From positions 1,185-65,184 of the forward strand of contig UQNF01000005.1 of NCBI GenBank assembly GCA_900542285.1: a stretch of DNA of 64,000 nt. Reading direction: 5' to 3'. This document shows, one piece after another, positions 10,044 through 64,000 of this stretch. The position numbers and the translations under genes were made by a program. The stretch comes from an uncultured Clostridium sp. (lineage in GTDB: Bacteria > Bacillota > Clostridia > Christensenellales > CAG-138). Every line of letters starts with the position of its first letter. Position 1 is the first letter of the stretch. The notes beneath the pieces were generated by a model, which was given only the letters and a program-made list of their open reading frames with translations, searched no databases and was not told the DNA's origin.

Positions 10044-10118
10044 AACACCTCATGGTATATTTTGCTCTGAGGGCTACGCTATCCGCCATTGAACATAGCA
10101 TATCCCTCAAAGCAAATG

Positions 10119-10146
10119 AGGGCCGGGCGATAATGCCCGCCCCTCG
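10119..10146 (-). promoter_or_regulatory. GC-rich hairpin after the SBP gene (partial terminator or mRNA stabiliser)
   Basis: The minus strand reads GAGGGGCGGGC-ATTATC-GCCCGGCCCTC, then ATTTGCTTTG. It sits in the 170-nt gap between the SBP and permease genes. Confidence 0.5.
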
Positions 10147-10213
10147 AATGATCTTCTGCACAAACCATAGCTCATATGCTATGGATATGTTTCAGTTTTG
10201 CTTCTTGAGCTTA

Positions 10214-11506: not shown

Positions 11507-11561
11507 TGTGATAGCTCCTTTAGTATTTTTTATTTTCACGCATAAAGCGGGAAAATCATCG

Positions 11562-12563
11562 TCATATGCTGCGCACCGACTCGCCTGTGCGCAGTACCGT
11601 GCTGAGCGTCACATGCTGCTGCTCTCCGCCGTTGATAAGTTCGAGCAGAATCTGTACGCTGTGGCTTCCCAGCTCCTCAACGGGCTGGCAGAGCGTTGTA
11701 AGCATGGGCTGAATATACTCGGAAACCGTTATTCCATCGATTGAAATAATCGAACAGTCCTCCGGAACTCTAATTCCGTTTTCGCGGAGCGCTCGCATTG
11801 CACCAATGGCCATATCATCGGCAATTACGAACAATGCGGTGCAGTCAAAGGGCTGTTTCAATCTTTCTTTCATAGCATAGTATCCGTTTTCTATGCTGTA
11901 ATCATTCGTGCTAATAATTTCAGCAGTGTCGATTCCGAAATCCTTGAGCGCTTTTACATATCCTTGGCTCCTAAGCTGCGATACCGACGAATCCTCCGTG
12001 CCTGCGTTGAGCGCAGCGATCTTCCTGTGTCCGTTTTTCAGGAGATACTCGACAGCACGCTTTGCTTCAAGCTCGTCCACTATCGATACCGATGAGTATT
12101 CCCCGGGGCTAAGCGTTCCGAATGCATTCGTATATGTACAGCACACAAACGGAACATTTATGAGTGCGATCTCTTCCCTTGAATAATCCGAGCGTCCGCC
12201 CAAAAAGATTATGCCGCGCAGTCGCTTTTCACGTTCCATGATGGCGCCGCTTTTAATCTCGTCTGCATTTGACTCTATCTGGCGCATGACCATGGTAAAG
12301 CCCGAAGCATCCAAATCGCGTTCTATCGAACGAATGATGCCTGTAAAAAACGGATTCTGAAGTCCCCTGACAATAACGCCGACGGCATCTATCTTGGTTC
12401 TTACCAGATCACGTGCCGAATTGTTCGGCACATAATTATACTTCTTGATTACCTCGAGTACCTTTTTGCGGCTTGCATCACTGACATCAGGACTATTGTT
12501 CAAAACCCTTGACACCGTGCTTACACCAACGCCGCTGAGCTTGGCAATATCCTTGATAGTCAT
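11562..12563 (-). CDS. LacI family transcriptional regulator
   Basis: Start at MTIKDIAKLSGVGVSTVSRVLNN (classic LacI HTH) with a GGAGGG RBS. The C-terminal part is a periplasmic-binding-protein-like sugar-binding domain. Confidence 0.9.
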   Translation of the reverse strand: MTIKDIAKLSGVGVSTVSRVLNNSPDVSDASRKKVLEVIKKYNYVPNNSARDLVRTKIDAVGVIVRGLQNPFFTGIIRSIERDLDASGFTMVMRQIESNADEIKSGAIMEREKRLRGIIFLGGRSDYSREEIALINVPFVCCTYTNAFGTLSPGEYSSVSIVDELEAKRAVEYLLKNGHRKIAALNAGTEDSSVSQLRSQGYVKALKDFGIDTAEIISTNDYSIENGYYAMKERLKQPFDCTALFVIADDMAIGAMRALRENGIRVPEDCSIISIDGITVSEYIQPMLTTLCQPVEELGSHSVQILLELINGGEQQHVTLSTVLRTGESVRSI

Positions 12564-16420: not shown

Positions 16421-16461
16421 GCTGCCCTAAAATCGAATAATTGTATAAGAAGGAACAAAGT

Positions 16462-18321
16462 GTGAAAAACAGAGAAAAGACAAAGAAAAAGAAAACCAAT
16501 TGGAAGCTGGTTGGCGAATTCATGCGCGGTTCGTATAAGCATTTTGTGCTTGGAGGCATAGGCCTTCTTGTTGCCGTGCTAACATCGTACATCATTCCTC
16601 AGATTACGGGCTTTACCATAGACTATGTGCTCATTGAGCATGCGGAAATAGGCTATGACGGAGGAATGGCCGTCGCCCCTTGGATCGAAAACCTCGTTAA
16701 CAGCATCGGAGGTAAGGGGTTTATTGAAAGTCATCTATATATCATGGGCATAATACTCGTGCTCGTGACGGCACTCAACGCGTATTCTTCATACCTTCGT
16801 ACCAGCCAGGTGGCTTACGGTTCGGAGATAATGAACTATAATATGAGGACAACGCTGTATTCTCACCTCGTTGCAATGCCATATGACTACTATAAGCATG
16901 TATCGAGCGGTGACATTCTGCAGCGCTGCACCTCCGATGTCGGCACCATAGGAAGATTCGTTCAGAATCAGCTTCTCGGAATCATCAGAACGATCGCAAT
17001 GGTCATCATCGCGGCGGTGTTTATGCTGAGCATGAATCCAAAACTGACCCTCTATTCGGTCATGCTTATGCCGCTCATCATAGTTATTGCTTTCGTCTAC
17101 TTCAAAAATGTGACCAAGTACTTCACCTATGCCGATGAATCGGAGGGAATGCTGAGCGCATGTATTCAGGAAAACGTCTCCGGAATGCGCGTTGTGCGCG
17201 CTTTCGGACAGCAGCGCAATGAGCTTGATAAATTCACCAAGCGCAACACGGATTACAGCAGCAAGGCAATAAAGCTCAACGAGCAGCTCAGCTTTTTCTG
17301 GGGAGGCACGGATACTCTCGGCTATGCCCAGATAGCAATAAGCCTCTGCGCCGGTATCGTTATGGCTGTCCGTAAGGAGATATCCGTCGGCGAGCTCATC
17401 GTCTTTACATCTTATACCGGTATGCTGGTATGGCCCGTTCGTCAGCTGGGAAGGATGCTTGCCGACCTTGGAAAAGCAAACGTTTCACTTGGCAGGCTTG
17501 ACGAGATCCTCTCCTCCCCTGTTGAAGCCGAACCCGGGCTTGCGCTTACGCCGGAGATCCGCGGCAATATCGAATTCCGCCATGTGGACTTTGGCTATGA
17601 GGACGGACAGGACGTTCTGAAGGATGTTTCATTTACCGCAAAGCGCGGAGAGACCGTTGCAATACTTGGCTCCACAGGCTCCGGAAAATCAAGCCTCGTG
17701 CAGCTCATCCAAAGGCTCTATACCTGCCGCAGCGGAGAAATACTCATCGATGGAGTCAATATCAATGACATCGAGCAGCACTATCTCAGAAAGCATGTCG
17801 GCATAGTCATGCAGGAACCCTTCCTGTACTCGAGAACCATCCTTGATAACATCAGGATTACCGACCCCACCGCCGATGAAGCGCTTGTCCATCAAATGGC
17901 AAAGATCGCTTCCGTCCATGACGCAATAATGGAGTTTGAAAACGGCTATGAAACCGTTGTCGGCGAAAAGGGCGTTACGCTGTCCGGCGGACAAAAGCAG
18001 CGCGTGGCGATTGCAAGGATGCTCATGCAGCAGACCCCTATTATCGTGCTTGACGACTCAATGAGTGCCGTCGATACCGAAACCGACGCAGCTATTCGCG
18101 ACGCGCTTCAAAGAGGAAAGCAGGACTGCACGACCTTCATCATCTCCCACAGGATAACCACGCTCTGCCGTGCCGATAAGATACTGGTGCTTGAGGGCGG
18201 CCGGCTCGTCCAGGAGGGTACTCACGAACAGCTCCTTGAGCAGGACGGACTGTACAGGCGCATTGCAGAGATCCAGAATCTGCTTGAGGATGAACTTCAT
18301 ACTGAAGGAGGTGTCGATTGA
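16462..18321 (+). CDS. ABC exporter, fused permease/ATPase half-transporter (subunit 1 of heterodimer)
   Basis: Six-TM domain plus an NBD with Walker A GSTGSGKSS, LSGGQKQR and Walker B IIVLDDSMS. GTG start at 16462 with an AAGGAA RBS is preferred over the TTG at 16441. Confidence 0.85.
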   Translation: MKNREKTKKKKTNWKLVGEFMRGSYKHFVLGGIGLLVAVLTSYIIPQITGFTIDYVLIEHAEIGYDGGMAVAPWIENLVNSIGGKGFIESHLYIMGIILVLVTALNAYSSYLRTSQVAYGSEIMNYNMRTTLYSHLVAMPYDYYKHVSSGDILQRCTSDVGTIGRFVQNQLLGIIRTIAMVIIAAVFMLSMNPKLTLYSVMLMPLIIVIAFVYFKNVTKYFTYADESEGMLSACIQENVSGMRVVRAFGQQRNELDKFTKRNTDYSSKAIKLNEQLSFFWGGTDTLGYAQIAISLCAGIVMAVRKEISVGELIVFTSYTGMLVWPVRQLGRMLADLGKANVSLGRLDEILSSPVEAEPGLALTPEIRGNIEFRHVDFGYEDGQDVLKDVSFTAKRGETVAILGSTGSGKSSLVQLIQRLYTCRSGEILIDGVNINDIEQHYLRKHVGIVMQEPFLYSRTILDNIRITDPTADEALVHQMAKIASVHDAIMEFENGYETVVGEKGVTLSGGQKQRVAIARMLMQQTPIIVLDDSMSAVDTETDAAIRDALQRGKQDCTTFIISHRITTLCRADKILVLEGGRLVQEGTHEQLLEQDGLYRRIAEIQNLLEDELHTEGGVD

Positions 18322-20189
18322 TGGAAGAACAGGTCAAGACCACGGCACTAAAAGAAGAAGAATTCAATAAGCATATAGACTTTAACGTTTGGAAGAAGCT
18401 CTTTGCCTATGTGATGAGGTATAAGGGAATGATACTGATCGTTGCGCTGTCAATGATAGTGGTCGCCGCTATCGATATCATTTATCCGCAGATAACCCGT
18501 TACGCTATCGACAATATCATCGCCGATAATGATCCCAACAGCCTTTCCAAGCTGCCGCTGTTTGCACTGTTTTACCTCGCAATGATCGTTATCCAGGGCG
18601 CGCTCGTATTGTGTTTTTGTCTGGTCTCGGGAAAGCTGGAGATGAAGGTCGCCTTCGACATACGCCAGGATGCATTTAAGAGGCTTCAGCAGCTTTCCTT
18701 CTCCTACTATGATAAAACAGCCGTTGGAAATATCATGACACGCATGGTCAGCGATATTCCAAGGCTGAGTGAGATGCTCGCTTGGAGCTTTACGGATATT
18801 TTCTGGGCAGGAGCCTTCGCTATCGGCTGCCTTATCACGATGCTGATGATGAACTGGAAGCTTGGGCTCGTCGTTCTCATTGTCGTACCGCCCATTGCCG
18901 TTGTATGCGGCTATTTTCAGAAGAAGATTCTGAAGCAGCAGCGAATTGTCAAAAAGCAGAATTCCGTCATCACCAGTGCCTATAACGAAGGCATAATGGG
19001 CGCAGTTACCACAAAAACGCTTGTGCGTGAAAGCCAAAATGACGAGGAATTCAAATATGAAGCCGGAAAGATGAAAAAAGCTTCCATCCGCTCTGCCGTG
19101 CTTTCGGCTATGTTCACCCCCGTTGTCATGGTACTTGCATCCATAGGAACTGCGATCGCACTGTACGCGGGCGGAAGCACCGTGCTTGCCCCTACCATCT
19201 TCGGTGCAAGCATGACGATCGGTGTGCTTTCCTCTTTTATCAGTTATACGACAAACATGTTCGACCCCATTCAGCAGCTTGCCGGAATCCTTGCTGAGCT
19301 GCAGAGCGCACAGGCGAGTGCCGAGCGTGTTATTTCGCTCATCGAGACCAAGAGCGACATAACCGACAGCGATGAGATAGTTGCAAAATACGGCGACTGT
19401 TTTGATCCCAAGCGTGAAAACTGGGAGGACATCAGCGGCGAAGTCGAATTCAGGAACGTTTCATTTGCATACAAAGAGGGCGAAAAAGTGCTGTCCGATT
19501 TCAATCTTCACGTTCGGCAGGGTGAAAACATAGCTCTCGTGGGCGAGACCGGCGCAGGTAAGTCCACCATCGTAAACCTCGTATGCAGATTCTATGAGCC
19601 TACCGAGGGTGAAATACTCATCGACGGCACTGACTATCGCGAACGGAGCCAGCTTTGGCTTCAATCGAGGCTTGGCTATGTGCTTCAAACTCCGCATCTG
19701 TTCTCCGGAACCATTCGTGACAACATTCGCTACGGCAGGCGTGACGCAACAGATGACGAAGTTAAGCAGGCGGCAAAAATGGTTCATGCCGACAGCTTCA
19801 TTGAGGAGCTTTCGAACGGTTATGATACCGAGGTCGGCGAGGGCGGCGTAATGCTCTCTACCGGGCAAAAGCAGCTTATTTCGTTTGCAAGGGTAATACT
19901 GGCGGATCCTAAGATATTCGTGCTCGATGAGGCTACCAGCTCCATAGATACCGAGACAGAGATGCTTATTCAGGACGCGATAAAAACGGTGCTCAAGAAC
20001 CGTACCAGCTTTATCGTTGCCCACAGGCTCTCCACAATTAGGAACGCAGACCGCATTCTCGTTATCCGCGGCGGAAGGATTACGGAGATGGGCACGCATA
20101 ATGAACTGCTGAAGCTCAAGGGCTATTACTATAATCTCTATACCACACAGTTTGCCGAAACCGGCACCAACAAGCTGCTAAACAGCTAA
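18321..20189 (+). CDS. ABC exporter, fused permease/ATPase half-transporter (subunit 2 of heterodimer)
   Basis: Walker A GETGAGKST, degenerate signature LSTGQKQL, Walker B FVLDEATS. The start overlaps the stop of the upstream gene (TGATG), with a GGAGG RBS. Confidence 0.85.
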   Translation: MEEQVKTTALKEEEFNKHIDFNVWKKLFAYVMRYKGMILIVALSMIVVAAIDIIYPQITRYAIDNIIADNDPNSLSKLPLFALFYLAMIVIQGALVLCFCLVSGKLEMKVAFDIRQDAFKRLQQLSFSYYDKTAVGNIMTRMVSDIPRLSEMLAWSFTDIFWAGAFAIGCLITMLMMNWKLGLVVLIVVPPIAVVCGYFQKKILKQQRIVKKQNSVITSAYNEGIMGAVTTKTLVRESQNDEEFKYEAGKMKKASIRSAVLSAMFTPVVMVLASIGTAIALYAGGSTVLAPTIFGASMTIGVLSSFISYTTNMFDPIQQLAGILAELQSAQASAERVISLIETKSDITDSDEIVAKYGDCFDPKRENWEDISGEVEFRNVSFAYKEGEKVLSDFNLHVRQGENIALVGETGAGKSTIVNLVCRFYEPTEGEILIDGTDYRERSQLWLQSRLGYVLQTPHLFSGTIRDNIRYGRRDATDDEVKQAAKMVHADSFIEELSNGYDTEVGEGGVMLSTGQKQLISFARVILADPKIFVLDEATSSIDTETEMLIQDAIKTVLKNRTSFIVAHRLSTIRNADRILVIRGGRITEMGTHNELLKLKGYYYNLYTTQFAETGTNKLLNS

Positions 20190-20209
20190 ACAGCCTTTTG
20201 GAGGATGAA

Positions 20210-21538
20210 ATGGAACTGCCCCAAGCCTTTGTCACCAGGATGAAAACCATGCTCGGCAGCGAATACGATGCCTATATTGCTCAATACGATCAAGAGCCCG
20301 TAAGAGGGATCAGGGTCAACACGCTTAAGCTTTCCAAGGATGAGTTCCTTGAGCTTTGTCCATGGCGCGTTGAGCAGTCCGACATCATTGACGAAGGACT
20401 GCTGCTCTGTGATGATGTTGAGCATATAGGCACCGACCCATATCACATCGCAGGCCTTTTCTATGTACAGGAGCCGTCCGCAATGAGCGTTATCGAGCAT
20501 TCCGACATACGGGAAGGCATGAAGGTTCTCGACCTATGTGCAGCGCCGGGTGGTAAGAGCGGCGGAATAGCCGCAAGGCTAAACGGAACGGGGCTTCTGG
20601 TATCCAACGAGGTCATTCCTGCACGCGCAAAGCAGCTTGCGCAGAACCTTGAACGGCTCGGAGTGATGAATGCCGTGGTCACTAATTCTCATCCCGACCA
20701 TATTGCCAAAACCCTTCCTCATTATTTTGACAGGGTCGTCGTGGATGCTCCATGCTCAGGCGAGGGAATGTTCCGAAAGGACCCTTGTGCGATCTCCGAA
20801 TGGTCAAGCGAGCATGTCAGCTCATGTGCGCTTCGCCAGAGAGCAATACTTGAGAGTGCCGCAGATTCTGTCGCTCCGGGCGGAAAGCTGATCTACTCCA
20901 CCTGTACCTTCTCCCAAGAGGAAAACGAGGGCGTTATTGAAGCATTTTTAACGGAACATCCGGATTTCTCGCTTGAAATGATGAAGCGTTACTATCCGCA
21001 TACCTGCCGCGGAGAAGGGCATTTCGTCGCACGGCTTTTGCGCTCCCACTGCATGAGTGCGCCCATATTCCGACCTCTTAACAGGAAACCTGATAAGAAA
21101 TCAAAGCTTATCGTCGATGAATTCTGCTCAAGTCAGCTGGACGGTTTCCCCTCCTTCGGCGATTTTATCATTGATAACGGAAGGGTATTCTATTCGCCGA
21201 CGGAGCTTCCGGCCGAGATAGAGAAGCTCAACATATTGAGGATCGGAGTTGATTTCGGAGAGCTCCTGAAGGGACGGTTAAAGCCGGCTCACGCCCTTTT
21301 CATGGCTATGAATGCGGCAAATGAGCTGCATTTTGATTGCAGGAACCACCTGCACCTTGGCAGGGATTCCGAGGAATTAAAACGATTCCTATCCGGAAAT
21401 ACTGTTATTGTCCCTGATGAGCTGTCAGGATTTGTATCCGTGACGGTCGACGGCTTCCCTGTCGGCTTCGGCAAGGCGGTTGACGGGACGCTGAAAAACC
21501 ACCTGCCCAAAGGTCTTAATCTTGCGTTTTTCCGCTAA
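20210..21538 (+). CDS. NOL1/NOP2/Sun-family rRNA cytosine-C5 methyltransferase (RsmF/RsmB-like)
   Basis: SAM motif DLCAAPGGKS and catalytic motifs DAPCSGEGMFRK and YSTCT. ATG at 20210 follows GGAGGA. Confidence 0.8.
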   Translation: MELPQAFVTRMKTMLGSEYDAYIAQYDQEPVRGIRVNTLKLSKDEFLELCPWRVEQSDIIDEGLLLCDDVEHIGTDPYHIAGLFYVQEPSAMSVIEHSDIREGMKVLDLCAAPGGKSGGIAARLNGTGLLVSNEVIPARAKQLAQNLERLGVMNAVVTNSHPDHIAKTLPHYFDRVVVDAPCSGEGMFRKDPCAISEWSSEHVSSCALRQRAILESAADSVAPGGKLIYSTCTFSQEENEGVIEAFLTEHPDFSLEMMKRYYPHTCRGEGHFVARLLRSHCMSAPIFRPLNRKPDKKSKLIVDEFCSSQLDGFPSFGDFIIDNGRVFYSPTELPAEIEKLNILRIGVDFGELLKGRLKPAHALFMAMNAANELHFDCRNHLHLGRDSEELKRFLSGNTVIVPDELSGFVSVTVDGFPVGFGKAVDGTLKNHLPKGLNLAFFR

Positions 21539-55162: not shown

Positions 55163-55252
55163 CAGGCGTTGGACTTGTTGCCAATTCTGCTGTTAAGTAG
55201 TATAATAGAGTATTGGGAGTGAAATACTCTTACCAAATAATTGAAGGTGTTT

Positions 55253-56635
55253 ATGAGCTATAAATTCAAAGCTAACGATAGAATACATTTTATTGGCATC
55301 GGCGGTTGTTCGATGAACGGACTGGCGCAGATCCTTCAGCACCGCGGCTGCATTGTTGAAGGCTCTGACAAGACCACTTCGCCCTTTACCCAAAGGCTTG
55401 CAGAGGTTGGTATTCCCGTTCAGATCGGACAATGTGCCGAAAACGTAAAAGACTGCGACTGCGTGGTCTATTCCGCTGCGATTAAGAGCGACAATCCCGA
55501 GCGCATCCGCGCAAGGGAGCTTGGTATTCCTGAGATCGAACGTTCGGTCGCGCTTGGCATGATAAGCGAGGGTTATAAGGATGTCATCGGAATCGCAGGG
55601 TGTCACGGCAAGACCACGATAACCTCCATGCTTGCTCTCATCAGCGAGTTTGGCGGTATTGATGCAACCGTCCATGTCGGTGGTATGGTCGATTTTCTGC
55701 ACGGCGGCATCCGTTTGGGCTCGCACGACCTTTTCATTACGGAGGCTTGCGAGTATGTGGAAAGCTTTTTGACCCTGCATCCGACGGTTGTCCTTATCAA
55801 CAACATAGATAATGACCATCTTGACTATTTCAAGACATTCGATAATATTGTCAACGCTTTCCGCAAGTTCTTGGATCGTATGCCCGAGGATGGACTTTTC
55901 ATAGGGTGTACCGATGATGCAAGCGTACGCAGACTTATCTCGGAATTCAGCGGCAGGACCATAACATATGGCCTTGACACGGAGAATGAGCCGGATTACT
56001 ACCCTGCAAATATCAGCTATGATGAGCTTGGCTGCGCAAGGTTCGACCTCATGCACAAGGGCGACGGAATCCTTGGAAGGATTATCCTTCACGTCCCGGG
56101 AAGGCATAATATGCTCGATGCCATTGCCGCTGCTTCAGCCGCACTAGCCCACGGGGCTGAATTCTCCGCCATTGCGCAGGCACTCGCGGCTTTCCGTTCC
56201 GTGCAGCGCAGATTTGAATTCTACGGCGAAAACGCCAAGGGAGTCAGGATCTACCACGATTACGCACACCACCCTGCGGAGATCCGTGCAGCGATCGACT
56301 GCGCAATGCGCACCCCTCACAATAAGCTCTATATCGTCTTCCAGTGCAACAGCTTTACAAGAGCGAAGACACTGTTCACGCAAGGTGTGGACTGTTTCTG
56401 CGGAGCGGACTATGTGCTTGTGCCGGACATTTACCCCGGAAGGGAAATAGATGACGGGAGCGTTCATGCCCGCGATATGGTTAAAGCTATCAATGATGAG
56501 ACAGATAATGCTCTTTACATTCCATCCTTTGAGCTTATCAAACAGTATTTGGACGAACATGCCGAAAAGAATGACATCGTCCTTACCTTAGGGAGCGGAG
56601 ATGTATATAAGAAAACAAGGTTGTTCCTTGATTGA
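55253..56635 (+). CDS. murC: UDP-N-acetylmuramate--L-alanine ligase
   Basis: Start at MSYKF. Motifs HFIGIGGCSMNGLA, GIAGCHGKTTITSM and DYAHHPAEI. Confidence 0.94.
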   Translation: MSYKFKANDRIHFIGIGGCSMNGLAQILQHRGCIVEGSDKTTSPFTQRLAEVGIPVQIGQCAENVKDCDCVVYSAAIKSDNPERIRARELGIPEIERSVALGMISEGYKDVIGIAGCHGKTTITSMLALISEFGGIDATVHVGGMVDFLHGGIRLGSHDLFITEACEYVESFLTLHPTVVLINNIDNDHLDYFKTFDNIVNAFRKFLDRMPEDGLFIGCTDDASVRRLISEFSGRTITYGLDTENEPDYYPANISYDELGCARFDLMHKGDGILGRIILHVPGRHNMLDAIAAASAALAHGAEFSAIAQALAAFRSVQRRFEFYGENAKGVRIYHDYAHHPAEIRAAIDCAMRTPHNKLYIVFQCNSFTRAKTLFTQGVDCFCGADYVLVPDIYPGREIDDGSVHARDMVKAINDETDNALYIPSFELIKQYLDEHAEKNDIVLTLGSGDVYKKTRLFLD

Positions 56636-56726: not shown

Positions 56727-56755
56727 GCTACGGCTGCATTTCTCGCAGCCGTAGC
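56727..56755. terminator. Bidirectional terminator between murC and the double-GNAT gene
   Basis: Perfect 11-bp stem GCTACGGCTGC-ATTTCTC-GCAGCCGTAGC preceded by an A-run. Confidence 0.75.
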
Positions 56756-56816: not shown

Positions 56817-57749
56817 TTATTCTGTATGCGCAAAAGTCGATCCCAATCTGACATCAAAACCAAGCGCCCTATACATTCCTTCGTCGCAAGGAGAGCAGCA
56901 AACGGTCAGGCTTGAAACGGTATTATCACTGCACCATTGCTGTGCTGCCTGCGCAAGCTTCCTTGCCGCGCCTTTCCTGCGGAACGCAGGTTCGATATAG
57001 AAATCATCGAACACGCCGGTATCAGAACAGGCAAAAGTTGAGAAGCATTTTGCGACGCTGCACATTCCTACTGCGCGGTAGCCACGCTTCGCCATGAAGA
57101 ATGTGATTTTTCCATCTCGAATCGCCTGCTGCAGCTTCTCCTGTTTTTCCTCCGTCAGCATTTGCTCGCCGATCTCCTTTAGGAATCCATTCTCCAGCTT
57201 TTTGAGCTGCCAGTCCTCCGGGTCTGATAGGATTTCGACAGTAATGGGAACTTCATCTTTCGGGGGCAATATCATCAGCGGTTCACCCCACTCGTCGACT
57301 CCGTTTTCAACAAAGCCTAAGCTTTCCCAGAAACGGAACCGTCGCTCATTGCTGCCATAGTTCAGTTCTGCATAGAGTGCGCCGTTTTCTCTTGCCCAAT
57401 CTATGAGCACGGCAGCGCACGCTTTGCCTGTTCCGCTGCCCCGGAACTCCGGATAGACGCAGTATTCCATGATAAAACATTTGCCGTCCTCCGTGTTGAA
57501 TATGACCGGCATGGCAAAACCTATGTCTTGGCCATTCCTATGGAAGAACAGGTAATGGCAGCGATCCTGCGGCCTATCATGTATCTTTTGCATATCCGCC
57601 CGGTATTCGGTATCACTGAGGAAGTATTCTCTGTCCTCGTCCTCCGGGTTTGGAAAGATATCCCGAATAAAATAGATTCGAAGCTGCTGCCAAAACACAG
57701 CAATATCCTGTTCCGTGACTGCTTCACGGATGGTGATTTGGTTTTTCAT
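56817..57749 (-). CDS. Tandem GNAT-domain acetyltransferase
   Basis: 310 aa. Two GNAT-like halves with motifs EFRGSGTGKACAA and AFRRKGAARKLAQ. Confidence 0.7.
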   Translation of the reverse strand: MKNQITIREAVTEQDIAVFWQQLRIYFIRDIFPNPEDEDREYFLSDTEYRADMQKIHDRPQDRCHYLFFHRNGQDIGFAMPVIFNTEDGKCFIMEYCVYPEFRGSGTGKACAAVLIDWARENGALYAELNYGSNERRFRFWESLGFVENGVDEWGEPLMILPPKDEVPITVEILSDPEDWQLKKLENGFLKEIGEQMLTEEKQEKLQQAIRDGKITFFMAKRGYRAVGMCSVAKCFSTFACSDTGVFDDFYIEPAFRRKGAARKLAQAAQQWCSDNTVSSLTVCCSPCDEGMYRALGFDVRLGSTFAHTE

Positions 57750-57917
57750 TTTAGTCCTCCGATAATTCTATTGGAGGGTTATGAAGCGTGAACCCTCCGT
57801 ACACGACTCATCATCATATAAATACCACCCTTTCCGTCTATGACATTAATTTGAATTCTGCTATATTGCAGCAATGGAGCTTGCATTAGTATCGCAGCTC
57901 CATCATTCAGCTATTTA

Positions 57918-58847
57918 TCAGTCGCTTGCCAAGTCGTTGAAGTCGTTAGCCTGTTCAACTCCGACCCTTGGGCCGACGCGTCCTGCAAGCATGTATTTAT
58001 CCTTTATCGGGTCGTAGAAGAACTGCTTTATCAAGCGCAAGTTTTCTATTGCGCCCGTCGACGGAACATGCGTTCTGGGTCCGGTGCAGGCATGGACCCT
58101 ATCTCCGATCTTGATATGTCCCTCGTCCAAATAGTAGATACCGATATCCTGCTTAATTGCCTCGAGAACATCGGCTTCAAGCTTGTCTATATCAAAATCC
58201 GGCTTTTCCGTAAATTCAAGAACAAATCCGTGTTTGATATCGCCATGATGGCAATTCCTCATGTACTTCTCAGGCAGATATATCTCGCAGAGATCTTCTG
58301 CCGAATGCGCCATACGCCTGTACACGATTGATCTTGCGACCTTTCTGTGTATCTCACCCGGAAGCGGACCAAATATCGTCGGACGGTTAATGATTATTTC
58401 CTCGCCTACCCCGATCAGCAGGTTTGCATTCGTTCCGAGGAACGGGAAAATCATGTCAAAATGCTCAACTATAACACGCTTGCCATTCTTAACAGCACGC
58501 AGTATCGCTTCCGCCAGCGTATGCATCTGGGTGAAAGCGGCCTCAAAGCGAATGTCCACATGATATGTGTGCGCAGTAAAGAAGCCTTCATCGTCCTGAT
58601 CCAACAGCGGAAGCGGACGCATATTCACGCCGTTATCGTCATTGGTCAGTTCAAGCCCCGGAAACATTCCCTTGATCAGCATACTCTTACCCGATCCGGC
58701 TTCACCTATTATGCCGATGAGCTTGTCATACGGGCTCAGATACATCTGCGCTATCTGCATACCAAGATCATAGATCCTATCCCTGCCCCTTGGCGCAAAG
58801 AAGACGCTGTAATAGTGACTGTTCTGCATTTTGCCTGAAAAAGACAT
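57918..58847 (-). CDS. P-loop NTPase fused to a tRNA-SAD/AlaX-like C-terminal segment (hypothetical)
   Basis: Walker A GEAGSGKS near the N-terminus. The C-terminal HHGDIKH and VHACTGPRTHVPSTGAIENL resemble the His/Cys zinc motifs of the Ala/Thr-tRNA synthetase second additional domain. Confidence 0.45.
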   Translation of the reverse strand: MSFSGKMQNSHYYSVFFAPRGRDRIYDLGMQIAQMYLSPYDKLIGIIGEAGSGKSMLIKGMFPGLELTNDDNGVNMRPLPLLDQDDEGFFTAHTYHVDIRFEAAFTQMHTLAEAILRAVKNGKRVIVEHFDMIFPFLGTNANLLIGVGEEIIINRPTIFGPLPGEIHRKVARSIVYRRMAHSAEDLCEIYLPEKYMRNCHHGDIKHGFVLEFTEKPDFDIDKLEADVLEAIKQDIGIYYLDEGHIKIGDRVHACTGPRTHVPSTGAIENLRLIKQFFYDPIKDKYMLAGRVGPRVGVEQANDFNDLASD

Positions 58848-58906
58848 ATTCTTACCAACCTTCTATTATAACAGGGACAGCTATCCCCGATGATTCTTGC
58901 AAATTC

Positions 58907-58935
58907 ATTATAGTATAGCTATCGATTATTTGCAA
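58907..58935 (-). promoter_or_regulatory. SigmaA-type promoter for the P-loop/SAD-like gene
   Basis: Minus strand: TTGCAA, 17 nt, TATAAT. Confidence 0.55.
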
Positions 58936-58964
58936 GCCGCATTTCTTGGTAGGCTCCTGCAGTT

Positions 58965-59414
58965 CTATCTATGGACATACATCCTTGTCATTTCTTCCTC
59001 TCCATCCCCTTGGACCATACACAGGAATTCCCATCCGTAACGCTCATAGAATGAATCATGGTCTGTGACGAGGTAGAGGGTCTCTATTCCCCTATTCCTC
59101 ATATCGCTGCGAACATAATCCAGCAGTTTTCCTGCAATACCTTGCCTGCGGTATTCCTTCTCCACATACAGCGCACACAGGTTGGGCGTCAAATCAGGTC
59201 TGTCGTGAAAATCATTGGCAATTATGCCGCAGCCGGCAATTATCCTGTCCCCATCTACGACATTGTACCACTGCGGAACTGCGTTGTCGCCGCTCAGGCA
59301 ATCGTCCATGCTTTCAAGATATGCTTCGATGGGAATATTGAATTTGCTGTTAAACCATTCGGCCGCCCTCTGCTTCATTTCGGGGCAGTCAATGACCCTG
59401 ACGATCCTGTACAT
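58965..59414 (-). CDS. GNAT-family N-acetyltransferase (last gene of the RiPP-like operon)
   Basis: Start at MYRIVRV with a GGAGAAAGGG RBS. Motif YRRQGIAGKLL. It begins 42 nt downstream of the PqqD-like gene on the same strand. Confidence 0.75.
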   Translation of the reverse strand: MYRIVRVIDCPEMKQRAAEWFNSKFNIPIEAYLESMDDCLSGDNAVPQWYNVVDGDRIIAGCGIIANDFHDRPDLTPNLCALYVEKEYRRQGIAGKLLDYVRSDMRNRGIETLYLVTDHDSFYERYGWEFLCMVQGDGEEEMTRMYVHR

Positions 59415-59456
59415 CCCTTTCTCCTTTTCACGCTTCAATAACTGTTTTACTATATC

Positions 59457-59726
59457 TTACTCTATGTTAAGTATGCCTGCCTCAATCAGCTTTTCCGTGA
59501 ATTCATGTACATCAGCAGTCAATGTCTCTCTGTCGATCTCATATTCCTGCAGGAGCCTGTCGACTATTTCATGCTCCTCCAAGCCATCACAGTAAAGCTC
59601 ATATATGGCAGCGGCGGTCTCGGACATGGGAAACACACCGTTAAGCTTCATGTTTTCGCTTCCGACCGGAACCAAAACATGGTCGCCGATTATCTCCCTA
59701 TGAATAAAGCCTTTATTTATTTTCAT
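59457..59726 (-). CDS. PqqD-family protein (RiPP recognition element-like)
   Basis: 89 aa. Pattern ...HVLVPVG...LNGVFPMSETAAAIYELYCDG...EIVDRLLQEYEID...DVHEFTEKL is typical of PqqD/RRE. It overlaps the radical SAM gene by 14 nt. Confidence 0.75.
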   Translation of the reverse strand: MKINKGFIHREIIGDHVLVPVGSENMKLNGVFPMSETAAAIYELYCDGLEEHEIVDRLLQEYEIDRETLTADVHEFTEKLIEAGILNIE

Positions 59727-60831
59727 TGATCTCCTCCTTGCAGTACTTCTGCCTTATCAGGTCATGAAACGTCTTTGTAAATGTACAGACATACTCCGGC
59801 GGCTTAGAAAGATTCCCCGTCTCTGCCAATCCGCATGCGGCGCACATCACGCAATCCTTGCGATGAGAACAGCTCATGCACTCAGCGGGAAGTTCAAGTC
59901 CCTTCGCATCGGCTCTGGTCAGTTCCCACGCTTCCTCAAAGCCTCGTTTTTGAACATTATACCCTTCGCATGGAAACATTCCGCACGGAAGTATGCGGCC
60001 ATCCCAAGTTATCCAAAAAGCGGTGCGTCCTGCTCGGCAATGCATGGGTTTGCCCTCGCTTCCTGTGCACTCCTCATGCTCATCGCCTATTCCGTCGATG
60101 GATCTGATAAGCTGTTCCGGACTCATAATCTGTTCGCGACACTCCAGCATGTGCTTAGCCGCATCCTCGGCAGTGAACCTATGCGGCGCAGCTCCGAATT
60201 CGCTGCCCTCTATTCGTACCGGCGGATACATATACGCTGATGCCTGAATGCCCAGCCCCTCACTTCTGGCAAAAGCATGTATGGCTTCTATTTCAGAGAC
60301 GTTGTACGGCGTGATAGATGCGTTTATTCGTATCGGAACGCCGGCTTCATGCAGTCTTCTTATATTTTCTGCAACGACTGAGAACTTTGCATTGCCGCAC
60401 AGCCTTTCATATGCTTCTTCACTTCCGCCATAGAGGGAAATATTGAGTCTGTTTGGAGGGTTCTTGACAAACAGCTCAAACAGCTCATCGTCGATAAGTG
60501 AACCATTGGTATTTACGGATAGAACAAGCCCCATATCCTTCAATCCGCAGTAGATCTTTGGAAAGTCCGAGCGTATCAGAGGCTCTCCTCCGGTGAGAAG
60601 CAAAAACAGCATTCCTTTTTTAACAGCGGCTTCACCTATCTCCAGCCACTCGTCTGCGTTAAGCTCCGGCCTGTTTGTCGGTTGATGAATATAACACATT
60701 TTGCAATTAAAATTGCATCTGGGCGTCAGCTCAAATGTTCCCGAGATGGGCAGGCCGAGCTTTGAGCCTTTGGAGTGCAAGTAAGCAGCCCAATATGGCT
60801 CCCCGTTAATCAGTCTATCGTCAACGATCAT
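59713..60831 (-). CDS. Radical SAM enzyme with C-terminal SPASM domain (peptide-modifying type)
   Basis: CNFNCKMC (CX3CX2C) at residues about 39-46. C-terminal Cys cluster CRAGRTAFWITWDGRILPC ... CMSCSHRKDCVMCAAC fits the SPASM pattern. Confidence 0.9.
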   Translation of the reverse strand: MIVDDRLINGEPYWAAYLHSKGSKLGLPISGTFELTPRCNFNCKMCYIHQPTNRPELNADEWLEIGEAAVKKGMLFLLLTGGEPLIRSDFPKIYCGLKDMGLVLSVNTNGSLIDDELFELFVKNPPNRLNISLYGGSEEAYERLCGNAKFSVVAENIRRLHEAGVPIRINASITPYNVSEIEAIHAFARSEGLGIQASAYMYPPVRIEGSEFGAAPHRFTAEDAAKHMLECREQIMSPEQLIRSIDGIGDEHEECTGSEGKPMHCRAGRTAFWITWDGRILPCGMFPCEGYNVQKRGFEEAWELTRADAKGLELPAECMSCSHRKDCVMCAACGLAETGNLSKPPEYVCTFTKTFHDLIRQKYCKEEINENK

Positions 60832-61583
60832 AGGTACCTCTCCAGGTATTCAACGGTATTTGGGTCTAATTCGCAGTTGAATTCGATGATAGGCACGCTT
60901 GATATGAGCTTGCTCACAAGTTCAACTGTGTTTTTCATCCGATCCTCGCTGGTTCTGTCTATCATTACTTCGCTGAGAATGCGCACAAACGGTTCAACGC
61001 CGCTGACGCGGCGCGCTTGGTTCACCTTGGCCTGTCCAAGCAGTACAACCGCCTTGATCGGAGCGGTAACGTTTTTACAGTAGCCGCTTGAGCCGCTCAA
61101 AAAGCATCCGTTTGCGTAGAAAACAGTATCGCGAAGTGAAACTATCGTTCTGTCGCCGTTGATAATTTCAGCACCGCGCTGTTGTTTCCAAAACTCTGCC
61201 TGTGTACTCTTCCCAGTACCGCTCGGAGCGGAAAAAACTATAGCTTTTCCGTCCGTCAGGACGAACGAGGAATGAAGCACAAACGCACCTTTTTCAGTCA
61301 TCAGTGCAGGAGCATTAGCATCATTCAGTATGCAGAGCGGATACGCTTTCTTCGCGATAGATGGTTTGTACAGCAGCTTGATGGTATTTCCGTCACGAAT
61401 AACATGCTTGTAATCCTCTTCGTGCTCATAGTCTTCCGCTCTTCCTGCGTTCACATCTATAATGAAATCCGGTTCAACATCATGGACCTCGAAGCTGCTG
61501 AACTGTTCGGGTTCAGCCGTCTCCCAAGGCACAACTATTTTGAATACGATCCCTGCGAAGGAGTAAAGCTTATTATGCATCAT
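60828..61583 (-). CDS. HPr-kinase-like P-loop protein (putative peptide/protein kinase)
   Basis: Start at MMHNKLYSF, overlapping the upstream stop. P-loop FSAPSGTGKST followed by GAEIINGDRTIV parallels the HprK C-domain GxSGxGKSE...ADD. ATGA overlap with the radical SAM gene. Confidence 0.5.
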   Translation of the reverse strand: MMHNKLYSFAGIVFKIVVPWETAEPEQFSSFEVHDVEPDFIIDVNAGRAEDYEHEEDYKHVIRDGNTIKLLYKPSIAKKAYPLCILNDANAPALMTEKGAFVLHSSFVLTDGKAIVFSAPSGTGKSTQAEFWKQQRGAEIINGDRTIVSLRDTVFYANGCFLSGSSGYCKNVTAPIKAVVLLGQAKVNQARRVSGVEPFVRILSEVMIDRTSEDRMKNTVELVSKLISSVPIIEFNCELDPNTVEYLERYL

Positions 61584-62301
61584 AGTCAACAAACATAACC
61601 TGACTGTATCTATCGCTGAAATGGGGCGCATATCCCGTATATGTCGCACCGGCGTCAATTCCTCCATCGACTCTGACTCGATAGGTTATTCCGCCAACGA
61701 GTATTCCTGAGTCATAGTTCTTATAATAGACATAGAAGCTGCCGTCAATGCGCTCATCGGTGATGTTCTTTACATAGATTATGTTATCGCTTGCCGTTAT
61801 CTCAAGCATATCCTCATGCCTGCTCGGGGCCTTGTCAAATGCCACATATTGCTCGACAACTCCCGAAATTTTCATCGCCCTGACCGGAGCGGTCTTCCTG
61901 TTGATATCAAAGGCCCGTATAGTAGAATGCGGCGGCACAGTGCTGAGTTCAAAGCAGTACTGTACTCCGTCGCAATACAGGCTAACCTTGGCGTACTGGA
62001 TATACTGCTCCGAATTGTTCACAAATGTGGCAGAAAGGAAATTGCTGACCATATCATTGCTTCCGTCCTCAAAGAACAGACCCGAAACACGCGCAATGTA
62101 CTTGAGCTGTAAGCCATTCGTCAGGCTCAGCACGGAGCCGTTTTCTACAACGACCTGCTCCTCTTCCGGAACGAACGGGACCTCGGTAGGCTCTGGTGTT
62201 GGCTGTTTGTTGCCCGATAGGCCGCTTGCCAGCACTCCTATAAGTGCCAAAAACGCAGCTGCGGAAATAACCGCAATTATAATTCCAATTTTCTTGCTCA
62301 T
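61573..62301 (-). CDS. Single-pass membrane-anchored protein, unknown function
   Basis: 242 aa. N-terminal TM helix (IGIIIAVISAAAFLALIGVLASGL), a Pro/Glu linker and a beta-rich extracytoplasmic domain. Confidence 0.5.
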   Translation of the reverse strand: MSKKIGIIIAVISAAAFLALIGVLASGLSGNKQPTPEPTEVPFVPEEEQVVVENGSVLSLTNGLQLKYIARVSGLFFEDGSNDMVSNFLSATFVNNSEQYIQYAKVSLYCDGVQYCFELSTVPPHSTIRAFDINRKTAPVRAMKISGVVEQYVAFDKAPSRHEDMLEITASDNIIYVKNITDERIDGSFYVYYKNYDSGILVGGITYRVRVDGGIDAGATYTGYAPHFSDRYSQVMFVDYDA

Positions 62302-62313
62302 ATTAGGAATTTC

Positions 62314-62332
62314 CCCCGCCGTTTAAGCGGGG
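62314..62332 (-). promoter_or_regulatory. GC hairpin between the small ORF and downstream operon genes
   Basis: Minus strand: CCCCGC-TTAAACG-GCGGGG. The 3' arm overlaps the purine-rich RBS of the next gene. Confidence 0.45.
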
Positions 62333-62351
62333 TAATTGTCGCTATTCTAAA

Positions 62352-62591
62352 TTAGGAATGGAAAATCCTTGATCCAGCAATGGGAACATGATAGCAGAAT
62401 TCGCTTTCATCACCATTCTGCGGAGTGACCGAGCATTTATCTAACGATAGGAAAAGAAGAAATCCGCCTCCCAAGTCGTATGTGCAGGTTGAAGCACTGC
62501 CAAAGTTAGTGCTTACAGTTAACGAACAGTCCCCGGCCGCTTTTACGCCAAAATTCACGAAAGCAATTTCAGGCTTCGAATAATTCTTCAT
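62352..62591 (-). CDS. 79-aa Cys-containing small protein (candidate RiPP precursor)
   Basis: ATG preceded by GGAGGT at 5-nt spacing. Four Cys, no signal peptide, C-terminal Ser. It is the first gene of the radical SAM operon. Confidence 0.5.
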   Translation of the reverse strand: MKNYSKPEIAFVNFGVKAAGDCSLTVSTNFGSASTCTYDLGGGFLLFLSLDKCSVTPQNGDESEFCYHVPIAGSRIFHS

Positions 62592-62665
62592 TGGTTACCT
62601 CCAAATAATCGAGTAAGTACCGGGATGGGTGTTGCCCACCCCATTTTATCAGAGCATGAAACCGC

Positions 62666-64000
62666 TCAGTCAGCTCCAAGCACATGGCGCATCAGGACGA
62701 GAGCGTCATACGAGCTGACGGTTCCGTCGCCGTTAAAGTCAGCCGCCTTGAGCTTCGAGCCCTTGAGCTCTACCAATCCGAGGGCATAACGCATTACGAG
62801 AAGAGCATCAAATGTGTTGACATTACCATCTCCGTTTACATCGCCAATGGTATAGTCGCCATAGAGATAATCGAGATGCTCGACCGCAGCCTCAATGCCC
62901 CTGACATCGCAGCAGGCAACGATGGAATTTTCGTTCTCCTGAAGCAGCGCGTTCGGATCGGCGGAAGAATCGGTAGTGGTTACAAATTTAACGCCGTCAT
63001 TCGATGTCACCTTGATATTGGTAATCGAAATGACACTGCTCGTTCCCTTAGTCGCAGGATTGCTGAACATCAGATCTGAAGATACATAGTACGTCTTTTC
63101 GTTAATAGTTGTCGTTGACCATGAAATATTCTTCAGCTCATAGTACATATCGGCAGTCGTTGATAGATCGTTGACCAGAGTTAATTCGATCCAAGGATCT
63201 GTTACATAAGTCGATACATTCTTCTGCGACAGTACCAGCTTTCCGGGATTACCAAATGCAAGCTTTGTACCAATCATGAATCGAGCGTTGCTCGGATCCT
63301 TATCGGTCATGAGCCTGAAATAGACTCCTTGTCCGGGTGTGAGATAGATCTCATTGTTGGGGCTGGGATTCAGGTAATTGAATGAATAGCCTTCTGCAGG
63401 AGCAGTTACTTCGCCCATACCGTCGATAAATATCGCTCCTGTAAAGGTATATGTCGTTCCATTCTGAACACCGCTTCTGCTGAAAACGAAGTCCCTAAAA
63501 CGCACGAAGTCAGGATTTGCTTCACCATCGCTCTTGTATGCAGCTTCTGCCGTCGCATCTCCCTTTGCAGGGTCGTAAATGCGTATCGCATCGAGGTAAA
63601 CGGTGTAGCTGTCACTTCCGGTATGATTAAAGCTACTGTTATAGATTACCTTTATCGTTACGGTGTATTCGCCATAAGCGAGATCGGAAACCTTTATGAC
63701 GGGTACCTGCCAGACACCCGGCGTGCCCTCAGAGGGTACCGCAGTCCAGATACCGTTATTATATGTATAGCCATAATAAGTATCAACGATCAGGCTCTTT
63801 ACAAGCCCTCCACTGCTGTTCTCGACCTGAACGATCATAAGTCCGCTTGTGGAGTCGGTCTTGGAAATAACATCAAAGCCGGTTCCCTTGAAGGTAAAGC
63901 TTGCGGAAGGCGGGTTACTGCTATCTGTATCTGCATTAACCGTTACCTTATGATAGCCGTTCATGCTGAAGGCAAGCTCATCATCGTATATCGGATCATA
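62666..64000 (-). CDS. Dockerin-containing extracellular protein (5' end outside the window)
   Basis: The C-terminus has two calcium-binding dockerin repeats (DVNGDGNVNTFDALLVMR; DFNGDGTVSSYDALVLMR). The upstream part has beta-rich CBM/Ig-like modules. The frame stays open to position 64000. Confidence 0.8.
   Translation of the reverse strand, partial: YDPIYDDELAFSMNGYHKVTVNADTDSSNPPSASFTFKGTGFDVISKTDSTSGLMIVQVENSSGGLVKSLIVDTYYGYTYNNGIWTAVPSEGTPGVWQVPVIKVSDLAYGEYTVTIKVIYNSSFNHTGSDSYTVYLDAIRIYDPAKGDATAEAAYKSDGEANPDFVRFRDFVFSRSGVQNGTTYTFTGAIFIDGMGEVTAPAEGYSFNYLNPSPNNEIYLTPGQGVYFRLMTDKDPSNARFMIGTKLAFGNPGKLVLSQKNVSTYVTDPWIELTLVNDLSTTADMYYELKNISWSTTTINEKTYYVSSDLMFSNPATKGTSSVISITNIKVTSNDGVKFVTTTDSSADPNALLQENENSIVACCDVRGIEAAVEHLDYLYGDYTIGDVNGDGNVNTFDALLVMRYALGLVELKGSKLKAADFNGDGTVSSYDALVLMRHVLGAD

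Follow-up and report, generated by a model that had tools for sequence, protein, structure and literature searches.

We describe a group of genes near one end of a 64,000-nucleotide stretch of DNA (hereafter the window; positions 1,185 to 65,184 of contig UQNF01000005.1, assembly GCA_900542285.1) from an uncultured Clostridium sp. of the Christensenellales lineage CAG-138. Behind a gene for a giant secreted protein, they encode a peptide of 79 amino acids (aa) with four Cys residues, a 242-aa membrane-anchored protein, an HprK/ScmC-like P-loop protein, a radical S-adenosylmethionine (SAM) enzyme of the SPASM type and a stand-alone PqqD-family recognition element (RRE) for peptides synthesised ribosomally and modified post-translationally (RiPPs). 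On balance we favour the view that these genes make up a peptide-maturation cassette which is conserved in gut Clostridia (Oscillospiraceae-type), is linked genetically to a giant protein of the cell surface and works by the mechanism that we propose below. The arrangement is far beyond chance, as it recurs in dozens of species genomes with coupling-type junctions between its genes. An earlier reading of the window from its letters alone (the sequence-only reading) had picked out the 79-aa open reading frame (ORF), the radical SAM/SPASM enzyme, the stand-alone PqqD/RRE protein and the HprK-like protein as a candidate RiPP system, and these four do form a conserved, co-inherited cassette.

Relatives of the radical SAM protein were found in 535 stretches of DNA (one genome per species was scanned), and the best 80 loci were analysed; nearly all of these come from Oscillospiraceae- or Clostridia-type metagenome-assembled genomes of gut or rumen, together with cultured Pseudoflavonifractor and Flavonifractor strains. 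The window proteins were searched against the 80 loci by tblastn, and small upstream ORFs by profile search. By tblastn the HprK-like protein was present in 72 loci, PqqD in 66, the 242-aa protein in 56, a conserved module of the giant protein in 46, and a GNAT acetyltransferase, whose gene follows the PqqD gene in the window, in none; all-against-all clustering yielded no further family conserved across the 80. The conserved unit begins with the giant secreted protein, followed in turn by the 79-aa peptide, the hairpin, the 242-aa protein, the HprK-like protein, the radical SAM/SPASM enzyme and PqqD, and the same six-gene order was met in three further loci reached from homologues of the precursor peptide, where the gap between giant and precursor genes is 15-19 nt. 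The six minus-strand ORFs of the sequence-only reading, their overlaps and the hairpin (Table 1) are present as it described them; what it misplaced was the boundary, because it took the small ORF for the head of a six-gene operon, which is headed instead by the giant gene running off the end of the window.

Table 1. Positions, in the window, of the cassette genes and the features directly beside them.
Feature	Positions	Strand	Remarks
Giant secreted-protein gene, 3' end	62666..64000	-	Translation open to window edge
79-aa precursor-like peptide	62352..62591	-	Homologue directly upstream of cassette in 51/80 loci
G+C-rich hairpin, 7-bp stem	62314..62332	-	Inside 50-nt gap after precursor stop codon
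242-aa membrane-anchored extracytoplasmic protein, LTD-like tandem beta-sandwich ectodomain	61573..62301	-	53-56/80 loci
251-aa HprK/ScmC-like P-loop protein, putative peptide Ser kinase	60828..61583	-	72/80 loci
372-aa radical SAM/SPASM enzyme, without fused RRE	59713..60831	-	Pfam Radical_SAM 3.1e-27
89-aa stand-alone PqqD-family RiPP recognition element	59457..59726	-	PqqD 1.4e-15; 66-67/80 loci
149-aa GNAT acetyltransferase, adjacent, outside the conserved system	58965..59414	-	GNAT Pfam matches; 0/80 loci

The genes are tightly packed: the 242-aa and HprK-like genes overlap by 11 nt, the HprK-like and radical SAM genes by an ATGA, and the radical SAM and PqqD genes by 14 nt, with a gap of 42 nt between PqqD and GNAT. 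The HprK-like ORF is longest when read from 61667; a start at 61583, giving 251 aa and the 11-nt overlap, is favoured because it matches where homologues begin and how the gene is called in contigs of the same species. The 79-aa ORF is preceded, 7 nt upstream, by a GGAGG Shine-Dalgarno sequence.

The coupling of peptide and giant protein is without exception. Of the loci, 48 have 5 kb or more of sequence upstream of the radical SAM gene; 41 of these carry both precursor and giant module, 7 carry neither, and none is discordant. In the window and in precursor-centred loci the two genes lie 15-74 nt apart; in two loci (L031 and L047) the giant gene stands downstream of PqqD instead. The same count answers the question, raised by the sequence-only reading, of whether homologous maturases have a homologue of the 79-aa ORF beside them, since one is adjacent in 41 of the 48. 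When divergence of the radical SAM protein was controlled for in exploratory partial Mantel tests (p<=0.001 for each), the highest residual correlation was between the HprK-like and 242-aa proteins (0.66), followed by precursor and giant module (0.45) and by RRE and precursor (0.36).

The 79-aa peptide belongs to a nameless family, without Pfam matches, of at least 230 database clusters, all of 76-94 aa. A word-indexed search with the single ORF returned near-identical proteins only, and the family emerged from a collection of 5.8 billion proteins when a profile was used; invariance was scored over 83 clusters and motif statistics over 128 distinct members. The window carries one copy of the peptide, with a leader Y4-x-x-P7-x-I9, a core of ~57 aa holding C22, C36, C53 and C66-Y67, and a C-terminal F77-x-S79. 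Invariant in the family are M1, Y4, P7, F14, C22, C36, C53, C66, Y67 and S79. A [Y/W]xxPx[LIVFAMY] motif lies within the first 20 residues of 127 of the 128 members, and ~24 residues precede the first Cys; exactly four Cys are found in 107. The core is ~57 aa and acidic throughout the family (median net charge -4), and the spacing from the last Cys to the tail Ser is fixed at 11-12 residues. The family leader consensus is YxKPxlxFExFELSxxIAxGC, for which the window peptide has YSKPEIAFVNFGVKAAGDC. AlphaFold2 (AF2), given 83 sequences, produced no confident fold of the precursor (mean pLDDT 50), and identification of the peptide by its fold was abandoned, there being no model to search with.

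In the window the hairpin behind the peptide gene is weak when taken alone (dG -15.2 kcal/mol, z -1.5); of 51 related loci, however, 46 have an equivalent strong hairpin (median z -4.8), often with a T-run behind it, which is probably a read-through attenuator or a transcript stabiliser. A hairpin after the precursor gene is the layout to be expected in a RiPP operon whose structural gene is expressed in excess over its maturation genes. The RRE-binding type of leader motif, the invariant Cys, the want of a confident fold and the attenuator-type hairpin together give the ORF the features of a RiPP precursor, in line with the earlier proposal.

For the PqqD-family protein the best NCBIfam matches are lasso PqqD chaperones; among solved structures it comes closest to TbiB1 (2e-4) and TfuB1, both lasso RREs. 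Discrete lasso RREs recognise [Y/W]xxPx[L/V/I/A/F/Y] (PMC13381572), and the N-terminal motif of the peptide family is this documented recognition motif.

The domain assignments of the sequence-only reading were checked against Pfam and TIGRFAM hidden Markov models (HMMs): Radical_SAM, PqqD and GNAT matched, SPASM fell just under its cut-off (19.1 bits vs 21.5) and the HprK-like protein, searched singly, was marginal (ScmC 3.4e-4, HprK_rel_A 9.5e-4, HprK_rel_B 5.7e-3). At the level of the family, membership of the HprK/ScmC superfamily is solid, as judged from sequence comparison: 21, 20 and 16 of 27 members match HprK_rel_A, ScmC and HprK_rel_B, all below cut-off and with a best ScmC match of 1.2e-7; a profile of the 27 has as its best PDB matches the HPr kinase/phosphorylases 2qmh and 1jb1 (E 0.002), in an alignment that spans the His, P-loop and Asp region; and homologues carry the precomputed Pfam label PF27840 ScmC. 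H104, G124-K125, T127, N142 and D144 are invariant in this family.

The radical SAM protein is a member of a large family (4643 clusters at E<=1e-10) with generic names only. In an alignment of 23 homologues, 49-66% identical to the window protein, the CX3CX2C cysteines C39, C43 and C46 are invariant, as are the eight predicted to hold the two auxiliary [4Fe-4S] clusters of a C-terminal SPASM domain, which has 7-8 such Cys (C255, C265-x12-G278-x4-C283, C318-x2-C321-x5-C327-x2-C330 and C349). The closest PDB sequences are SkfB (6e-15) and PqqE (5.5e-11), and the Foldseek neighbours of an AF2 model (pLDDT 84) are SkfB, SuiB, anSME, CteB and PqqE. Assigning a chemistry by structure was given up as not discriminating, with SkfB and SuiB best by E-value and anSME by TM-score. 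None of the curated maturase cut-offs was reached (StsB 73 vs 625 bits, SkfB 56 vs 300, AlbA 50 vs 850, PapB 44 vs 340, WgkB 53 vs 650), nor those for the cofactor pathways of pyrroloquinoline quinone (PQQ) and mycofactocin (PqqE 74 vs 381 bits, MftC 71 vs 265, PqqD 24.5 vs 46), nor any other NCBIfam equivalog cut-off. By these scores the cassette lies outside every curated family, with all equivalog models missed by a wide margin.

The giant gene product is 1928 aa long in contigs of the same species, where the full gene is visible. Of the fragment visible in the window, residues 1 to ~335 are conserved module and the last ~60 are a type I dockerin (Dockerin_1 9e-17). The module, ~430 aa near the C-terminus of the giants, is what is shared between them, being kept in 46 of the 80 loci where a dockerin is present in only 3; it is carried by 1221 representative proteins, nearly all of 1500-3800 aa, and has no match in Pfam, the PDB or NCBIfam. 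Giant homologues (1500-2600 aa) have Sec signal peptides and variable N-terminal halves, either vWA with tip-pilin-like immunoglobulin (Ig) domains, or GH20. Behind the module come a dockerin (the window, L001 and L017), a C-terminal transmembrane (TM) segment (L010 and L012) or a short aromatic tail, and these tails look like interchangeable surface-attachment devices. Many giants have, after the module and within their last ~150 residues, an Ig-like repeat that starts F-E-P-E-x-F-E-A-S-W; loci with this repeat and an aromatic tail include L036, L054, L058, L061, L063, L066 and L068, and also L070, L071, L073, L074, L078 and L079. Examples of the tail are ..WNNFFGKWF, ..WWNWWF and ..LNKLFSRWF, and it may be an undescribed sorting or anchoring signal. 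The idea that F-E-P-E-x-F-E-A-S-W is a second RRE-like site was rejected: its spacing is unlike that of YxxPxL and it is the start of the downstream Ig-like repeat.

The 242-aa family begins with a TM segment or, in homologues, a lipobox, and because of this anchor the body of the protein is taken to be extracytoplasmic. It gave no sequence match in the PDB, and the profile searches yielded only weak matches, by 7 of 32 family members, to the Ig-like lamin-tail domain (LTD) of Pfam (best 2e-8).

The cassette works like a hybrid between the RRE and HprK-like kinase module of lasso-peptide and linear polyphosphorylated peptide (LPP) clusters and a SPASM maturase of the sactipeptide/ranthipeptide type. 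Its closest described systems are the LPP clusters, reported in 2026, and the paeninodin-type lasso peptides, and neither has a radical SAM enzyme. The LPP clusters, described from Bacillota (Popov et al., Nat Commun 2026; PMC13381572), have precursors of 35-200 aa with the leader motif YxxPxVLxHQxIxFETxxS, and their kinase LppK phosphorylates Ser3 of the cores; the words 'radical' and 'SPASM' are absent from that paper. Common to LPP clusters and our cassette are a discrete lasso-type RRE, a kinase resembling HprK, an N-terminal YxxPx[V/L/I], a long core and frequent capsule or cell-envelope surroundings. The archaeal-type (SipW-like) signal peptidase I (TIGR02228, E 1.9e-5) and NTP_transf_5, which define LPP clusters, are also encoded near the cassette in 12 and 7 of the 80 loci, and a membrane YaeI-like phosphoesterase in 6; by tblastn none of the three is present in the window. 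LPP clusters differ in having no radical SAM enzyme, and their signal peptidase, NTP transferase and adjacent MsbA-like exporter are missing from the window; the leaders diverge after YxxPx[LIV], LPP cores are variable in contrast to the invariant four Cys and F-x-S found here, and no giant-protein or LTD-protein partner was described there.

Paeninodin-type HprK-like kinases phosphorylate a conserved C-terminal Ser of the precursor and carry a His-Lys-Asp-Asp motif, and the nucleotidyltransferase-like PsmN adds hexose to the phospho-Ser (PMC9266682). With these systems (kinases PadeK, ThcoK and PsmK) our cassette has in common an HprK-like protein, a precursor with a conserved C-terminal Ser and a PqqD-like RRE for a YxxPxL leader; the NTP transferase that adds to the phospho-Ser is optional there. 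The analogy with paeninodin kinases that the sequence-only reading drew is an apt one, given that the precursor tail F-x-Ser is invariant and that some relatives add the NTP_transf_5 and SipW-like peptidase genes which accompany such kinases. The differences are that three of the four residues of the His-Lys-Asp-Asp motif are kept here (by alignment to HPr kinase/phosphorylase, HprK/P), that a lasso core is ~20 aa against ~57 aa with four Cys, and that the radical SAM/SPASM enzyme stands in the place of the lasso cyclase (C) and B2 protease; neither of the latter was found among the nine ORFs at 56817-63964 or among the conserved neighbour families of the 80 loci.

From the side of the radical SAM enzymes, the cassette shares with sactipeptide and ranthipeptide systems (SkfB, CteB, AlbA, PapB) the CX3CX2C core, a SPASM domain with two auxiliary clusters, RRE-guided leader recognition and a Cys-bearing precursor encoded next door. 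In those systems the RRE is an N-terminal domain of the enzyme, whereas here it is a separate protein; the core is much longer here, and a kinase, an LTD-like protein and a giant protein are partners where a linked protease and ABC exporter are lacking. The sequence-only reading took an HprK-like protein for a non-standard partner of a SPASM enzyme, but at the bioinformatic level there is precedent in ScmC of the SynChlorMet cassette (ScmC with ScmE and ScmF; TIGR04249-04251, PF27840), which likewise combines an HprK-like P-loop protein with radical SAM/SPASM enzymes. ScmC is the best NCBIfam match of our 251-aa protein, yet at 20 vs 125 bits; ScmE and ScmF reach 70 and 47 vs 400 bits each, there is one radical SAM gene here and two there, and the taxa differ. 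As far as we know, the SynChlorMet cassette has not been characterised either, and no precursor has been assigned to it. The PqqA and MftA precursors are unlike the 79-aa four-Cys peptide. In quinohemoprotein amine dehydrogenase, a larger extracytoplasmic protein, the subunit QhpC of ~80 aa, which is not a free natural product, receives several Cys thioethers from the radical SAM/SPASM enzyme QhpD, and such systems include a dedicated protease, an exporter and the redox enzyme; in our case it is an adhesin-like or GH20-like protein that would be the large partner, by a link that is only genomic. Full-text literature searches turned up no description of a cassette that joins radical SAM, HprK-like and PqqD genes, and the two chemistries of radical SAM/SPASM crosslinking and HprK-type Ser phosphorylation have not yet been seen side by side in any characterised system. 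Genome-mining tools of the generic sort would probably mark the cassette as an RRE-containing or ranthipeptide-like region.

We propose that the giant gene and the peptide gene are co-transcribed, and that read-through into the enzyme genes is reduced by the hairpin which follows the peptide gene. The RRE would bind the YxxPx[LIV] leader, as lasso-peptide RREs do, and present the acidic core to the enzymes. The three-cluster radical SAM/SPASM enzyme would crosslink this core, most likely by thioethers from the four invariant Cys, a chemistry that we propose because SkfB and CteB are its closest solved relatives, and the HprK/ScmC-like protein would use ATP to phosphorylate a Ser, the likeliest target being that of the F-x-S tail, by comparison with paeninodin-type lasso precursors. 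Removal of the leader and export would be carried out by unlinked genes in this organism. The mature peptide could then act outside the cytoplasm with the LTD-like membrane protein and the ~430-aa giant module and not as a free bacteriocin; that it may act with the giant protein, and not as a free antibiotic, is suggested because it is always encoded beside a giant surface-protein gene. More specifically, and only as a tentative suggestion that may well be mistaken, the crosslinked, Ser-phosphorylated peptide of ~57 aa might dock to, anchor or regulate the ~430-aa module, with the LTD-like protein as its receptor or assembly factor, and there would be no diffusible antimicrobial.

Several observations weigh against this scheme. 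Both thioether formation and phosphorylation are drawn by analogy, and it is by genomic evidence only that the giant protein is linked to the cassette; because partial Mantel tests are known to be liberal, the co-divergence is taken only as consistent with linkage. The radical SAM model has its top TM-score (~0.70) to anSMEcpe, an enzyme that modifies proteins. The tail Ser is the last residue in 120 of the 128 precursors and has one residue after it in the other 8, and the leader region holds, in most of the family, another conserved Ser (F-E-L-S) whose position is like that of the LPP phospho-site and which is missing from the window peptide. In the alignment to HprK/P the first Asp of the lasso-kinase His-Lys-Asp-Asp aligns to Gly or Glu (N-[G/E]-D-R), so that catalysis by the HprK-like protein, though plausible, is not assured. 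Neither an exporter nor a leader peptidase for the cassette was found in the window. Finally, the 7 loci without precursor and giant gene nearby do have the kinase, radical SAM and PqqD genes, so that the substrate of such a trio must be encoded elsewhere or differ; a YxxPx[LIV] screen of these 7 for alternative precursors found none. Loci of this kind (L006, L035, L060 and related ones; for example L035 6081-8339) consist of the HprK-like/radical SAM/PqqD trio only, with the precursor, giant and 242-aa genes all absent within 7 kb, and in L035 the genes upstream are for arginine biosynthesis.

Other explanations have to be set against these points. It is unlikely, in our judgement, that the radical SAM/SPASM enzyme is a maturase of the ~430-aa module of the giant protein, acting before Sec export in the way of anSME and with the 79-aa protein as an accessory. 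The TM-scores to anSMEcpe, the absence of a fused RRE from both enzymes and the linkage of the giant gene, which can also lie downstream of PqqD as in L031 and L047, would all fit such a role; against it, the cassette has a discrete lasso-type RRE with the matching motif in 127 of 128 small proteins, the invariant columns of the module include no Cys or sulfatase-like motif, and the kinase/radical SAM/PqqD trio exists without a giant gene nearby. To our knowledge anSME systems do not use PqqD, which counts against this explanation too. Doubtful as well is the suggestion that the peptide becomes a stoichiometric, crosslinked small subunit, or a peptide-derived cofactor, docking in the giant module after the manner of QhpC/QhpD, PQQ or mycofactocin. 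PqqE and PqqD likewise pair a SPASM enzyme with a discrete PqqD, and the PqqE and MftC HMMs do align over the full length, though weakly and far below cut-off; the strict linkage and partial co-divergence (0.45) of precursor and module, the long and length-constrained core with its fixed spacing from Cys4 to Ser, and the lack of an exporter, immunity gene or protease in the window would also be in keeping with it. Yet the giants have Sec signal peptides and the peptide has none, and assembly could therefore take place only after separate export, and at their N-termini the giants carry adhesin-like domains (vWA, tip-pilin Ig) or GH20, not redox enzymes.

We see only a slim chance that the pathway is instead of the LPP type, with (poly)phosphorylation and maybe sugars as the primary modification, the radical SAM enzyme carrying out secondary chemistry other than thioethers (an epimerisation, say, or at Tyr67 a C-C or C-O crosslink), and the Cys simply forming disulfides after export, which are possible because the partners are extracytoplasmic. 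This would account for the invariant Tyr67 beside Cys66 and for those relatives that share an RRE, an HprK-like kinase, a SipW-like peptidase, NTP_transf_5 and capsule, LytR_cpsA_psr (LCP) or sortase surroundings, but the window and most loci are without the peptidase and the NTP transferase, the LPP leader motif is unmatched beyond YxxPx[LIV], and the universal partner of kinase and RRE is the radical SAM enzyme and not a peptidase. Strictly anaerobic gut Clostridia have little oxidative folding, a weak argument against disulfides. Very improbable is the self-contained six-gene RiPP operon of the sequence-only reading, headed by the small ORF, in which the gene upstream would play no part and the product, for example a bacteriocin, would be crosslinked, phosphorylated and acetylated by the GNAT. 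In its favour the GNAT gene follows PqqD at 42 nt on the same strand, has its own Shine-Dalgarno sequence and is kept in contigs of the same species; but no GNAT homologue was found in the 80 loci or in the 3 precursor-centred ones, the region behind it varies between strains through the insertion or deletion of a GmrSD gene, and the giant gene accompanies the precursor without exception and lies only 15-74 nt from it in the loci named above. Homologues of the GNAT occur only in same-species contigs, and because it is missing from all 80 related loci we regard it as a bystander, so that its membership of the system, and the acetylation proposed with it, is not borne out.

As for processing and export in a maturation cassette of the kind that we favour, the sequence-only reading saw no leader peptidase, ABC exporter or immunity gene beside the operon, and our search of the window likewise found none. 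The A-x-G conserved just ahead of Cys22 would, at a guess, suit a SipW-like peptidase. A Pseudoflavonifractor/Flavonifractor clade (L018, L021, L022, L023 and L025, at ~8360-11700; L023 is from the cultured Pseudoflavonifractor capillosus ATCC 29799) is without the 242-aa LTD-like gene; directly after PqqD it has instead genes for the membrane-anchored YaeI-like phosphoesterase, NTP_transf_5 and the SipW-like peptidase, followed by sugar-transferase and GT4 capsule genes, and its giant protein is a GH20 enzyme, not a vWA adhesin. Upstream of the giant gene, some loci have either sortase and LytR_cpsA_psr genes or a capsule gene of the Wzz/tyrosine-kinase type (L084 1-1415; L087 1-1478), and such sortase, LCP and capsule neighbours, of which the window has none, place the cassette in cell-envelope assembly surroundings, as reported for LPP clusters. 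Further off in the window, on the plus strand at 16441-21538, are a pair of ABC half-transporters (626 and 623 aa) and an RsmB-like gene, 62-77% identical to genes of L001, where the orthologues of the pair and of the RsmB-like gene are directly beside the cassette; ~38 kb of rearrangement separates them in the window lineage. The ABC pair (16441..20189) was considered as the missing exporter and rejected, since it lies 38 kb off and moves with RsmB as ordinary synteny shared with L001.

Beyond the GNAT gene, contigs of the same species have a 697-aa GmrSD (type IV restriction) gene directly after it (L081 12349-14442, L082 9578-11671, L083 8385-10478), at the place of which the window has a gap of 117 nt (58848-58964); a defence gene at the very border of the cassette has thus been gained or lost between strains. 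Next on the minus strand is a gene for a 309-aa protein (57918-58847) with the Walker A motif GEAGSGKS, preceded by a promoter-like site (58935-58907); the protein belongs to no Pfam or NCBIfam family and has no homologue in the 80 related loci. This P-loop protein and a double GNAT (56817..57749) were rejected as cluster members, both having homologues in 0 of the 80 loci; the promoter-like site precedes the former, and in sister contigs the strain-variable GmrSD insertion parts the two from the cassette. A strong palindromic, terminator-like hairpin at 56727-56755 (11-12 bp with 8 G-C pairs and a minus-strand T-run), between the double-GNAT gene (56817-57749, minus strand) and a MurC-like gene (55241-56635, plus strand), probably ends both of these converging transcription units.

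If the proposals made here hold, the cassette represents a widespread and unstudied peptide-modification pathway of gut and rumen Clostridia, with its radical SAM family present in at least 535 species genomes, and it links the kinase and RRE module of LPP and paeninodin systems with SPASM enzymes and may also explain the long-orphan ScmC-type cassettes. Its interest comes chiefly from a coupling to giant surface proteins that has no exception and no explanation so far, and from its cultured carriers in Pseudoflavonifractor and Flavonifractor, which make it directly testable. The strict pairing of precursor and giant protein is a testable lead on the purpose of such peptides, LPPs and ranthipeptides included, and on that of the ~430-aa module. 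Were the docking of the peptide to the module to prove true, it would give RiPP-type chemistry a new role, that of building the cell surface of abundant gut anaerobes.

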